A stretch of 64,000 nucleotides of DNA from Escherichia coli (lineage in GTDB: Bacteria; Pseudomonadota; Gammaproteobacteria; Enterobacterales; Enterobacteriaceae), in assembly GCF_003334405.1 (NCBI RefSeq), contig NZ_QOWM01000004.1, one strand, 5' to 3'. Under the pieces are notes generated by a model. It was not told the origin of the DNA and did no database searches. It was given only the letters and a program-made list of their open reading frames with translations. This document shows, piece by piece, positions 55,457-59,446 of this stretch. Within the stretch, counting starts at the first letter, position 1; every line of letters begins with the position of its first letter. The translations under genes and the position numbers were made by a program.

Positions 55457-58400
55457 TTGAGCCAGGAATACACTGAAGACAAAGAAGTCACATTGACAAA
55501 GTTAAGTAGCGGCCGCCGCCTTCTGGAGGCGTTGCTGATCCTTATTGTCCTGTTTGCCGTCTGGTTGATGGCTGCCTTACTAAGCTTTAACCCTTCGGAC
55601 CCCAGCTGGTCGCAAACGGCCTGGCATGAACCTATCCATAATTTAGGTGGGATGCCCGGTGCGTGGTTGGCAGATACGCTGTTCTTTATTTTTGGCGTGA
55701 TGGCTTACACCATTCCCGTCATTATTGTCGGCGGTTGTTGGTTTGCCTGGCGTCATCAGTCCAGCGACGAATACATTGATTATTTTGCCGTTTCGCTACG
55801 CATCATTGGCGTTTTGGCGCTCATCCTTACCTCCTGTGGTCTGGCGGCAATCAACGCTGACGATATCTGGTATTTTGCCTCCGGTGGCGTCATTGGCAGC
55901 TTACTAAGCACTACGCTACAACCACTGCTACACAGTAGCGGGGGAACTATTGCGCTGCTCTGCGTTTGGGCAGCGGGCCTGACGTTGTTCACCGGTTGGT
56001 CATGGGTGACCATTGCTGAAAAACTCGGCGGCTGGATTTTAAACATTCTCACCTTCGCCAGTAATCGTACCCGTCGCGATGATACCTGGGTCGATGAAGA
56101 TGAGTATGAAGACGACGAAGAGTATGAAGATGAAAATCACGGCAAACAGCATGAATCACGCCGTGCCCGTATTCTTCGCGGCGCGCTAGCGCGTCGTAAA
56201 CGGTTGGCGGAAAAATTCATTAATCCGATGGGGCGGCAAACAGACGCTGCGTTGTTCTCCGGTAAGCGGATGGATGATGACGAAGAGATTACCTACACTG
56301 CACGCGGTGTGGCTGCCGACCCGGACGACGTCCTATTTTCGGGCAATCGTGCAACGCAGCCAGAATATGACGAATACGATCCATTATTAAACGGTGCGCC
56401 AATTACCGAACCTGTCGCTGTAGCAGCTGCTGCTACCACGGCGACACAAAGCTGGGCTGCGCCGGTTGAACCTGTGACTCAGACGCCGCCTGTTGCCTCT
56501 GTTGATGTTCCACCTGCGCAACCTACAGTAGCCTGGCAGCCTGTACCGGGTCCACAAACGGGAGAGCCGGTTATTGCTCCTGCACCGGAAGGTTACCCAC
56601 AGCAGTCACAATATGCGCAGCCTGCAGTGCAATATAATGAGCCGCTGCAACAACCAGTACAGCCGCAGCAGCCGTATTATGCACCTGCAGCTGAACAACC
56701 TGCGCAACAGCCGTATTATGCCCCTGCGCCAGAACAACCGGTGGCAGGTAACGCCTGGCAAGCCGAAGAGCAGCAATCCACTTTTGCTCCACAGTCTACA
56801 TACCAGACTGAGCAAACTTATCAGCAGCCAGCCGCTCAGGAGCCGTTGTACCAACAGCCGCAACCCGTTGAACAGCAGCCTGTTGTGGAGCCTGAACCCG
56901 TTGTAGAAGAGACAAAACCCGCGCGTCCGCCGCTTTACTACTTTGAAGAAGTTGAAGAGAAGCGAGCCCGTGAACGTGAACAACTTGCGGCCTGGTATCA
57001 ACCGATTCCAGAACCGGTTAAAGAACCAGAACCGATCAAATCTTCGCTGAAAGCACCTTCTGTTGCAGCAGTACCTCCAGTAGAAGCCGCTGCCGCTGTT
57101 TCCCCGCTGGCATCTGGCGTGAAAAAAGCGACACTGGCGACGGGGGCTGCCGCAACCGTTGCCGCGCCAGTCTTCAGTCTGGCAAATAGCGGTGGACCGC
57201 GTCCTCAGGTCAAAGAGGGGATTGGTCCGCAGTTGCCACGACCGAAACGTATCCGCGTGCCAACTCGTCGTGAACTGGCGTCTTACGGTATTAAGCTGCC
57301 CTCACAGCGTGCGGCGGAAGAAAAAGCCCGTGAAGCCCAGCGCAATCAGTACGATTCTGGCGATCAGTACAACGATGATGAAATCGATGCGATGCAGCAG
57401 GATGAACTGGCACGTCAGTTCGCCCAGACACAGCAGCAACGCTATGGCGAACAGTATCAACATGATGTGCCCGTAAACGCAGAAGATGCAGATGCTGCGG
57501 CAGAGGCTGAACTGGCTCGTCAGTTTGCGCAAACTCAACAACAACGTTATTCCGGCGAACAACCGGCTGGGGCGAATCCGTTCTCGCTGGATGATTTTGA
57601 ATTTTCGCCAATGAAAGCGTTGCTGGATGATGGTCCACACGAACCGTTGTTTACGCCAATTGTTGAACCTGTACAGCAGCCGCAACAACCGGTTGCACCG
57701 CAGCAGCAATATCAGCAGCCGCAACAACCAGTTCCGCCGCAGCCGCAGTATCAGCAGCCACAACAGCCGGTTGCGCCGCAGCCACAATATCAGCAGCCGC
57801 AACAACCGGTTGCGCCACAGCAGCAATATCAGCAGCCGCAACAACCGGTTGCGCCGCAGCAGCAGTATCAGCAGCCACAACAGCCAGTTGCGCCACAACC
57901 GCAGGATACCCTGCTTCATCCGCTGTTGATGCGTAATGGCGACAGCCGTCCGTTGCATAAACCGACGACGCCGCTGCCTTCTCTGGATTTGCTGACACCG
58001 CCGCCGAGCGAAGTGGAGCCGGTAGATACCTTTGCGCTTGAACAAATGGCTCGCCTGGTGGAAGCGCGTCTGGCTGATTTCCGTATTAAAGCCGATGTCG
58101 TCAATTACTCTCCGGGGCCGGTTATCACTCGCTTTGAATTGAACCTGGCACCGGGCGTAAAAGCGGCGCGCATTTCTAACTTGTCACGGGACCTTGCCCG
58201 TTCACTTTCGACGGTGGCGGTGCGTGTCGTTGAAGTTATTCCTGGCAAACCCTATGTAGGTCTGGAGTTACCGAATAAAAAACGACAAACCGTTTATCTG
58301 CGCGAAGTTTTGGATAACGCCAAATTCCGCGATAATCCGTCGCCATTAACCGTGGTGCTGGGTAAAGATATCGCCGGTGAGCCGGTGGTTGCCGATCTGG

Positions 58401-59446
58401 CGAAAATGCCGCACTTGTTGGTTGCGGGGACTACCGGTTCCGGTAAATCTGTCGGTGTGAACGCGATGATCCTGAGCATGCTTTATAAAGCACAGCCAGA
58501 AGATGTGCGTTTCATCATGATCGACCCGAAAATGCTGGAGCTTTCGGTTTATGAAGGCATTCCGCATCTGTTAACGGAAGTCGTTACTGATATGAAAGAT
58601 GCCGCCAACGCGCTGCGCTGGTGTGTTAACGAGATGGAGCGTCGGTATAAACTGATGTCTGCGCTGGGTGTGCGTAATCTGGCGGGTTATAACGAAAAAA
58701 TTGCTGAAGCCGATCGCATGATGCGTCCGATTCCAGACCCGTACTGGAAGCCGGGTGACAGTATGGATGCCCAGCATCCGGTGCTGAAAAAAGAACCATA
58801 CATTGTGGTGTTGGTTGACGAATTTGCCGACCTGATGATGACGGTAGGTAAAAAAGTGGAAGAGCTGATAGCACGTCTGGCGCAAAAAGCCCGTGCCGCG
58901 GGTATCCACCTCGTACTGGCAACTCAGCGTCCATCGGTTGATGTTATTACTGGTCTGATTAAAGCGAATATTCCGACCCGTATCGCCTTTACCGTATCCA
59001 GTAAGATTGACTCACGTACCATTCTTGATCAGGCTGGCGCGGAATCACTGCTGGGTATGGGGGATATGCTCTACTCTGGGCCGAACTCCACGTTGCCGGT
59101 ACGTGTCCATGGTGCTTTTGTTCGCGATCAGGAAGTTCATGCCGTGGTGCAGGACTGGAAAGCGCGTGGTCGCCCACAGTATGTTGATGGCATCACCTCC
59201 GACAGCGAAAGCGAAGGTGGTGCGGGTGGTTTCGATGGCGCTGAAGAACTGGATCCGTTGTTCGATCAGGCGGTGCAGTTTGTCACTGAAAAACGCAAAG
59301 CGTCAATTTCTGGCGTACAGCGTCAGTTCCGCATTGGTTATAACCGTGCAGCGCGTATTATCGAACAGATGGAAGCGCAGGGGATTGTCAGCGAACAGGG
59401 GCACAACGGTAATCGTGAAGTGCTGGCCCCACCGCCGTTTGACTAA
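55457..59446 (+). CDS. ftsK: DNA translocase FtsK (1329 aa)
   Basis: Track ORF starting at TTG 55457 ([27 protein letters not shown]...); N-terminal TM domain, Pro/Gln-rich repetitive linker, C-terminal motor with Walker A (GTTGSGKS). Confidence 0.93.

Follow-up and report, generated by a model that had tools for sequence, protein, structure and literature searches.

Two in-frame 39-bp tandem arrays in the Escherichia coli FtsK linker are known strain-typing loci that vary in unit number

Placement of the repeats in ftsK

The window analyzed here, a 64,000-nucleotide stretch of an Escherichia coli contig, contains ftsK at positions 55457-59446 on the plus strand (TTG start, 1329 aa), the host gene of all of the repeat features described below. 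The encoded protein matches the NCBIfam FtsK equivalog NF007615 across residues 1 to 1329 (3049 bits), the RefSeq annotation of K-12 MG1655 carries ftsK at the same length as the window open reading frame (ORF), and the window was identified as E. coli K-12 sequence, its positions 57000-58500 being 100% identical to that strain. Pfam domains were placed at aa 137-191 (4TM), 840-940 (alpha), 948-1161 (ATPase), and 1264-1324 (gamma). The main repeat array (aa 742-816) lies between the 4TM region and the alpha domain of a bona fide FtsK, that is, in the linker (FtsKL), where a first-pass annotation made from the sequence had put it. It is the final element of the linker ahead of the motor domain and stops one residue short of the crystallized motor domain (PDB 2IUS), which starts at residue 818; no solved structure covers FtsK residues before 798.

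Proline and glutamine together make up 79% of the array, 29% of the linker, and 19% of the whole FtsK, which agrees with the earlier description of the linker as a low-complexity, Pro/Gln-rich region. The array was modeled by AlphaFold2 from a shallow alignment of 9 rows as coil with pLDDT below 50, and the array peptide is probably disordered. Reviews describe FtsKL as a P/Q-rich segment that joins the membrane domain to the motor and varies among species in length and composition, and the window array is of this kind. Reviews also describe FtsKL as devoid of conserved features, whereas the distal linker of Enterobacterales carries an invariant 17-residue segment and a twin helix motif. The linker has been reported to be non-essential for growth (PMC3140498).

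Structure of the arrays and the twin motif

The repeat features of the linker are as follows.

57674..57904, plus strand: main 39-bp in-frame tandem array (VNTR CVN001 = ms07), from TRF, a shuffle control, and a unit table
57680-57718, 57719-57757, 57758-57796, 57797-57835, and 57836-57874, plus strand: full units in codon register
57875-57904, plus strand: partial unit of 30 nt
56666..56743, plus strand: upstream 39-bp in-frame array (VNTR ms06), 2 units in K-12, aa 404-429, from TRF
57404..57445, plus strand: twin motif (ELARQF), copy 1, 14 residues, aa 650-663
57509..57550, plus strand: twin motif (ELARQF), copy 2, 14 residues, aa 685-698

The main array is composed of 5 full 13-codon units and a 10-codon partial unit, with a QQ lead-in from aa 740. 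TRF delimits it at 57674-57894 with a period of 39, 5.7 copies, 88% matches, and a score of 344, so that the earlier count of about five and a half tandem copies from 57673 holds with a start one base off; a higher-order period of 117 bp (three units, 94%) is reported as well. Self-identity of the array is 0.885 at lag 39 and 0.942 at lag 117, while the best lag reached an identity of 0.584 on average and 0.701 at most when the codons of this stretch were shuffled in frame 2,000 times. The periodicity is thus far above the codon-shuffle controls, and chance periodicity arising from P/Q low complexity is ruled out. A self dot plot of 56000-58100, the check that had been suggested for the repeats, displays the periodicity as diagonals only at lags 39, 78, 117, and 156, together with a weak one at lag 105.

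The duplication noted earlier near 56650-56740 is the upstream array, which TRF places at 56664-56739 with a period of 39 and 1.9 copies. A common origin of the two arrays was considered and rejected, with 20 of 39 positions identical in the best rotation compared with a codon-shuffle mean of 20.5. The duplicated block that had been reported near 57410-57550 is indeed present in two copies, though its full AELARQ start occurs only in copy 2, as the motif is preceded by D in copy 1 but by A in copy 2. These copies are 105 nt apart and not in tandem; they are identical at 14 of 14 residues and differ by 8 synonymous and 0 non-synonymous changes. The motif is kept across genera and is predicted to form a helix, and it is under purifying selection. 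Its conservation was read from a homology search of the distal linker that returned nearly all short partial fragments and served for motif conservation, not as a taxonomic survey. A text search of the literature for the strings ELARQFA and PQQPVAPQ, and for "PQ-rich" together with FtsK, found no match.

Identity with established typing markers

Primers of published multilocus VNTR analysis (MLVA) schemes each have an exact single match in the window.

57561..57579, plus strand: CVN001 forward primer (PMC8143711, Table 1)
57986..58005, minus strand: CVN001 reverse primer
57414..57433, plus strand: ms07 forward primer (PMC8215070, Table 1)
57981..58000, minus strand: ms07 reverse primer, amplicon of 587 bp
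56556..56575, plus strand: ms06 forward primer
56837..56856, minus strand: ms06 reverse primer, amplicon of 301 bp

The main array is the known strain-typing VNTR CVN001/ms07 and the upstream array is ms06; both loci were already known. CVN001 belongs to the generic E. coli MLVA scheme (Lindstedt et al. 2007, cited in PMC8143711, PMC5217547, and PMC3407997), has the same 39-bp unit, and is amplified by two primers that flank the array; no difference from the window locus was found. In those three MLVA papers it is treated as an anonymous size marker, and the gene is not named. The CVN001 amplicon here is 445 bp, which corresponds to allele 5 by the published formula, (445-250)/39 (PMC8143711). 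The Shigella/E. coli MLVA panel (Gorge et al. 2008, used in PMC8215070) likewise gives 39-bp units for ms07 and ms06, whose primers flank the main and the upstream array, respectively. Only the numbering convention separates ms07 from CVN001, K-12 being scored as about 6 at ms07 by amplicon size and 5 at CVN001. For ms06, sizes of 301 to 379 bp and alleles 2, 3, and 4 have been reported (PMC8215070), of which the 301 bp of K-12 is the smallest. The discovery value of the repeats is therefore small, as the locus has been a routine typing marker for nearly two decades and a variable P/Q-rich FtsK linker is textbook knowledge.

Copy-number variation among E. coli alleles

Comparison of 18 E. coli ftsK alleles revealed 2 to 9 units in the main array and 2, 3, or 4 in the upstream array, the latter being exactly the published ms06 alleles. 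Strain-variable linker length had been given as established in the first-pass annotation, and both this comparison of copy number and the MLVA literature bear it out. Measured between fixed anchors, the main array is 30-121 aa long and the upstream one 33-59 aa, and annotated FtsK proteins have lengths of 1303 to 1394 aa. In every one of 12 pairs compared, which together cover all 18 alleles, the two arrays are separated by 915 nt. The lengths of the two arrays sum to every annotated difference, and the two arrays therefore explain all FtsK length variation in this set; differences within 1303-1394 aa reflect these two 39-bp arrays entirely and are not to be mistaken for annotation errors. The reading frame is kept in each of the 18 E. 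coli alleles and in every array from other species, and the irregular indels (-9, +15, and a 24-bp deletion) are likewise multiples of 3.

Population frequencies were estimated from a quantile sample of 60 out of 5426 complete genomes, part of which were fetched and read while some were assigned from look-alikes. In this sample about 38% have the K-12 length and about 47% are one unit longer; the rarer lengths are -156, -39, -9, +15, +78, and +117 nt relative to K-12, making eight length classes in all. PCR typing gave 1, 40, 40, 13, and 5% for CVN001 alleles 4, 5, 6, 7, and 8 (PMC5217547), in agreement with the genome sample. Most ST131 isolates carry CVN001 allele 6, alleles 2 and 5 each being found in a single isolate (PMC3407997), and PCR sizes range from 1 to 12 (PMC8215070). 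We rejected assembly errors as the source of the copy-number differences, given that complete assemblies were used and that independent PCR sizing arrives at the same allele range and similar frequencies.

Closely related alleles show what kinds of changes occur. Alleles L003 and L015 match at all 3467 flanking nt and are separated by a 24-bp deletion flanked by 6-bp direct repeats (CCGCAA). Alleles L001 and L011 have 2 flank mismatches and differ by one upstream-array unit, and L008 equals L011 plus an exact two-unit duplication. The length is unchanged in laboratory derivatives of K-12 (MG1655, TOP10, HB101, and others), which suggests that the locus is not hypermutable on laboratory timescales.

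The repeat unit in related bacteria

Salmonella and Citrobacter carry the same 13-residue unit at the equivalent position, whereas Klebsiella-like homologues have a P/Q-rich, non-periodic stretch there. Some variants are array-wide and species-specific, such as QQHYQQ in Citrobacter sedlakii and YQP in Escherichia sp. MOD1, each found in most units. Unit identity is 0.86-0.97 within arrays, 0.82-0.90 between arrays of the same genus, and 0.81-0.93 between different genera, values that are suggestive of a modest effect of concerted evolution of the units. A genome-wide pattern scan also returned isolated single matches outside the enterobacteria, in Streptomyces, Bifidobacterium, and metagenome-assembled genomes.

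The closest described counterpart is STTR7 (= SENTR2) of Salmonella enterica, which like the window array is a 39-bp VNTR in ftsK; S. enterica arizonae has the same peptide unit at the same site. It is strain-variable, with 7.5 versus 8.1 copies among Typhimurium genomes and an 84-bp indel in Enteritidis. It differs from the window array in belonging to another species with unit variants of its own, and Typhimurium has an extra adjacent 30-bp repeat. When the 84-bp ftsK repeat indel was swapped between Salmonella Enteritidis strains, no phenotype was observed in one assay, survival in egg white (PMC6137255). In-frame VNTRs also occur in other extended envelope or division proteins. One of them, the 45-bp repeat of tolA (SENTR1), resembles the ftsK array in being a coding, strain-variable typing marker whose unit length is divisible by 3, although gene and unit are unrelated. 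The tolA repeat region probably functions as an extended spacer.

Mechanism of variation and selection on the unit

We consider it highly probable (roughly 0.88) that the main array is a known in-frame VNTR of the ftsK linker that gains and loses units by misalignment and forms a length-tolerant flexible tether. Units would be gained or lost when near-identical units misalign, through either replication slippage or unequal sister-strand exchange, and microhomology deletions within a unit would occur now and then. The arrays differ between alleles with identical flanks, which fits either process. The earlier characterization of the repeats as slippage-prone is likewise in accord with the in-register, in-frame changes, the exact adjacent duplications, and the 24-bp deletion between 6-bp repeats, with unequal recombination equally compatible. 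At the protein level, the array stretch may act as a flexible tether from the septum-anchored N-terminal domain to the motor, its exact length being tolerated over about 2 to 9 units while the peptide itself would remain under purifying selection.

Selection on the peptide is indicated by comparison of the units with one another. This comparison yields pN/pS ratios of 0.08 (main array) and 0.11 (upstream array) at a synonymous divergence of about 0.4-0.6, and the Tyr and Val positions of the main-array unit are nearly fixed. The repeat peptide thus appears, on these substitution patterns, to be under purifying selection. Because the differences between units are mostly silent and the unit is conserved in three genera, a purely neutral spacer does not explain everything.

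These same observations could be read as the signature of a sequence-specific module, in which each 13-residue unit, with its one Tyr, takes part in multivalent binding or self-association and copy number is tuned by selection. The low pN/pS in both arrays, the conservation of the unit at orthologous positions of the Escherichia, Salmonella, and Citrobacter proteins, the species-specific variants common to most units of an array, and the concentration of allele frequencies at 5 to 6 units all point in this direction. However, natural isolates range from 2 to 9 units and PCR sizes from 1 to 12, the Klebsiella-like stretch at the same place is non-periodic, the Salmonella allele swap had no phenotype in the single assay tried, the region is modeled as disordered, and the concentration at 5 to 6 units is equally compatible with clonal population structure. 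We therefore regard such a module as improbable. A more specific version, in which the unit would be a copy-number-tuned multivalent element beside the motor that aids FtsK subunit assembly or partner binding, with the twin motif and the invariant 17-residue segment serving as undescribed docking sites, is a speculative proposal and unlikely to be correct. The repeat peptide and the two neighboring motifs, which show clear purifying selection, are specific mutational targets for studies of the role of the linker in division or dimer resolution.

Two further explanations fare much worse than the length-tolerant tether. On/off switching of FtsK expression, or of the C-terminal domain, by frameshifts in a phase-variable (contingency) repeat is suggested only by the general fact that intragenic tandem repeats can work in this manner, and is hardly credible for a 39-nt unit, a multiple of 3, at a locus where all alleles and irregular indels keep the frame. 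It is also exceedingly improbable that the copy differences are assembly errors or the periodicity a chance effect of P/Q-rich composition: the linker is compositionally biased and many of the database fragments here come from broken short contigs, but the shuffle maximum of 0.701 is exceeded and the allele range and frequencies obtained by PCR agree.

Spurious ORFs in the other reading frames

Three long ORFs in other frames overlap the main array.

57302..58045, minus strand: spurious 247-aa ORF in the codon-aligned antisense frame, from the ORF list and pN/pS
57651..57998, minus strand: spurious 115-aa antisense ORF through the array, which is stop-free in this frame
57627..57929, plus strand: spurious 100-aa out-of-frame ORF on the same strand through the array, which is stop-free in this frame

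Opposite-strand ORFs of this kind had been attributed in the first-pass annotation to the repeats. This is correct insofar as the main array has no stop in 5 of 6 frames, but of the 744 nt that make up ORF 57302..58045 the array contributes no more than 221. This ORF exists because there is no sense TTA, CTA, or TCA codon between 57302 and 58184. Both of the opposite-strand ORFs are long, at 247 and 115 aa, yet the probability that either represents a real overlapping gene is negligible. The limits of the 247-aa ORF coincide with the sole sense TTA/CTA/TCA codons in the region, at 57302 and 58184, the K-12 annotation has no such gene, and the antisense frame lacks purifying selection: for the flanks within 57302-58045 of the 18 alleles, pN/pS reaches 1.18 when read in the codon-aligned antisense frame, compared with 0.03 in that of ftsK, and among the units it is 0.78 in the antisense frame compared with 0.08 in that of ftsK. 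In practice, short-read assemblies appear to break at the arrays, which also yield long false ORFs in five of the six reading frames. Such ORFs outside the ftsK frame arise as a by-product of codon usage without stop-generating triplets, and a second stop-free gap of 696 nt (56606-57302) lies wholly outside the array.

The ftsK gene and the place of the repeats in the protein

The window is E. coli K-12, with positions 57000-58500 being 100% identical to K-12 MG1655 and many of its derivatives. Gene order around ftsK is lrp, ftsK, lolA, rarA. The gene, the domains of its product (Pfam query beginning at residue 131) and the two repeat arrays are as follows.

55457-59446, + strand: ftsK ORF, 1329 aa, TTG start; full-length match to the NCBIfam FtsK equivalog
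aa 137-191: FtsK 4TM region (Pfam)
aa 840-940: FtsK alpha domain (Pfam)
aa 948-1161: FtsK ATPase (Pfam)
aa 1264-1324: FtsK gamma domain (Pfam)
56666-56743, + strand: upstream array, two 39-bp units
57674-57894, + strand: main array as called by TRF, period 39, 5.7 copies, 88% matches

The TTG start codon occupies 55457-55459, and the ORF from there has exactly the annotated RefSeq length. The main array lies in the Pro/Gln-rich linker, as the first-pass annotation had proposed. The domain positions put it between the 4TM region and the motor; its Pro+Gln content is 79%, versus 29% in the linker and 19% across all of FtsK. The Pfam domain positions, together with the start of the crystallised E. 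coli motor construct (2IUS) at residue 818, make the array the final linker element, ending one residue ahead of the conventional C-terminal domain start. It is predicted to be coil with pLDDT <50 in an AlphaFold2 model built from a small orthologue alignment.

Structure and periodicity

In codon register the main array comprises five full 13-codon units (57680-57874) followed by a 10-codon partial unit to 57904 (aa 742-816), which bears out the about five and a half copies originally noted. The array matches itself with an identity of 0.885 at a lag of 39 nt and 0.942 at a lag of 117 nt, while 2000 in-frame codon shuffles gave a best lag with mean 0.584 and maximum 0.701; the periodicity is not explained by composition. 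A self dot-plot of 56000-58100, of the kind the first-pass annotation had suggested, places main-array diagonals at lags 39, 78, 117 and 156, and elsewhere a lag-39 diagonal at ~56660 and a weak lag-105 diagonal at ~57400. TRF reports a second period of 117 bp (94% matches), a three-unit block present about twice. Units 1-3 are thus closer to units 4-6 (94%, lag 117) than neighbours are to each other (88%, lag 39), which argues for a past duplication of a three-unit block in the K-12 array. The upstream array corresponds to the earlier duplication described near 56650-56740, and despite the equal 39-bp period no relationship between the two arrays was detectable. In the proximal linker, a 9-bp repeat, GAGTATGAA, is present in 3.2 copies at 56102-56130 (TRF) and encodes an acidic 11-residue patch.

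Known typing markers and variation among strains

Both arrays coincide with published MLVA loci, whose primers map as follows.

57561-57579 (+) and 57986-58005 (-): CVN001, generic E. coli scheme (PMC8143711); exact, unique matches in the window
57414-57433 and 57981-58000: ms07, Shigella/E. coli panel (PMC8215070); match the window
56556-56575 and 56837-56856: ms06; match the window on either side of the upstream array

The CVN001 product in the window is 445 bp, corresponding to allele 5 by (445-250)/39, and the ms06 product of 301 bp is the smallest ms06 size reported. The main array is the already known VNTR CVN001/ms07, and the upstream array is the known marker ms06. The observation in the first-pass annotation is correct and its interpretation essentially right. 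Salmonella STTR7, the same locus as SENTR2, is also a 39-bp VNTR and is stated to lie within ftsK (PMC2430564; PMC3391293).

Copy number differs among E. coli alleles, contrary to the identical copy number in all strains that the first-pass annotation had named as a refutation. We fetched 17 further ftsK alleles spanning the similarity ranking; across the resulting 18, the main array has 2 to 9 units (terminal partial unit counted), and the region bounded by the fixed anchors LFTP and DTLLHP measures 30, 69, 79, 82, 87, 95, 108 or 121 aa. The upstream array, with 2, 3 or 4 units, is itself a VNTR. FtsK is annotated at lengths of 1303 to 1394 aa, and all of this length variation comes from the two arrays; the segment between them is constant at 915 nt in every allele pair compared. 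In a quantile sample of 60 out of 5426 complete genomes, in which rows not retrieved took the class of retrieved rows sharing their alignment pattern, ~38% have the K-12 length and ~47% are one unit longer, with rarer classes at -156, -39, -9, +15, +78 and +117 nt. Similar frequencies were obtained by PCR for Swedish ESBL-producing isolates, where CVN001 alleles 4/5/6/7/8 account for 1/40/40/13/5% (PMC5217547). The ST131 clone nearly always carries CVN001 allele 6; one isolate has allele 2 and another has allele 5 (PMC3407997). Most database proteins that match the distal linker are short pieces labelled "partial FtsK", encoded on contigs a few hundred bases long and in some cases frameshifted, which suggests that the ftsK arrays often interrupt short-read assemblies or introduce errors into them.

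How the arrays change

The reading frame is kept in every array change, and otherwise identical or near-identical alleles differ within the arrays. Alleles L003 and L015, with 0 mismatches in 3467 flanking bases, are set apart by a 24-bp deletion bounded by the direct repeat CCGCAA; L001 and L011 differ by 2 flanking bases and one upstream unit; and in L008 one pair of neighbouring units of L011 has been duplicated exactly (G H G H I J K L M versus G H I J K L M). Two identical adjacent units are also present in L005 and in L016. Misalignment between near-identical units, through replication slippage or unequal sister-strand exchange, would produce such changes, and the patterns appear to be those expected from misalignment, a term that here covers both routes together. 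The K-12 derivatives compared have all retained the same length, so on laboratory timescales the locus is not hypermutable.

Age and constraint of the unit

A degenerate-pattern scan with one genome per species recovered the main-array unit, repeated every 39 bp, in Salmonella enterica subsp. arizonae, Citrobacter sedlakii, C. amalonaticus and one Citrobacter metagenome-assembled genome, and single unit matches in ftsK of Escherichia whittamii and one further Escherichia species. The same flanking peptides border the array in all of these species; Klebsiella-like fragments have a non-periodic P/Q-rich stretch at the site. Most of the differences between units are synonymous (pN/pS = 0.08 among 38 distinct main-array units; 0.11 for the upstream array). 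This low ratio and a synonymous divergence of ~0.4-0.6 between units indicate that the units are not recent copies and that the peptide is under purifying selection. Private variants are common to most units of some arrays (QQHYQQ in C. sedlakii, YQP in Escherichia sp. MOD1), which suggests some homogenisation, but the identity contrast within versus between arrays is modest.

Published accounts portray the linker as rich in Pro and Gln, differing from species to species and dispensable for growth, and also credit it with a part in divisome interactions and in full dimer-resolution activity (PMC5357621, PMC3140498, PMC5391129). In Salmonella Enteritidis, swapping an 84-bp repeat indel in ftsK had no effect on the single phenotype tested (PMC6137255). 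From this literature, the natural range of 2-9 units and inference, the simplest reading is that the main array serves as a flexible tether and that changes in its length are tolerated. The strong bias towards silent differences among units still allows a sequence-specific role of the peptide, which we consider improbable.

Opposite-strand and out-of-frame ORFs

The first-pass annotation attributed long spurious opposite-strand ORFs to the repeats. This holds for 57651..57998 (-), and also for the same-strand 57627..57929 (+), which exist because the main array is free of stops in five of the six frames, but only in part for the example it named.

57302..58045, - strand: antisense ORF, frame aligned with ftsK codons, in which only a sense TTA, CTA or TCA can create a stop

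None of these three sense codons occurs in ftsK between 57302 and 58184. Of the 744 nt of this ORF the array contributes only 221, and another stop-free gap of 696 nt (56606-57302) lies upstream of the array; the ORFs therefore reflect the Leu/Ser-poor linker in its entirety and not the repeats alone. That the opposite-strand ORFs are real genes is ruled out by pN/pS across the 18 alleles (1.18 in the antisense frame versus 0.03 in the ftsK frame).

Conserved segments of the linker

The duplicated block reported near 57410-57550 is present as a 14-residue twin motif, although the first copy is preceded by D, not A.

57404-57445 and 57509-57550, + strand: twin motif, two non-adjacent copies (aa 650-663 and 685-698)

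The copies are identical at 14/14 residues and differ at 8 of ~9 synonymous and 0 of 33 non-synonymous sites; such silent-only differences point to an old duplication under strong purifying selection. The motif is conserved in Salmonella, Citrobacter and Klebsiella, and fragments from further afield contain two or three copies of a looser version, L..F......RYG. A 17-residue segment (aa 589-605, window ~57221-57271) shows no variation across an alignment of nine enterobacterial sequences, and none of the papers searched contains the strings of the motif or of this segment. The invariant segment sits in a linker that reviews call devoid of conserved features. Both twin motif copies lie within predicted helices, with moderate confidence (AlphaFold2).
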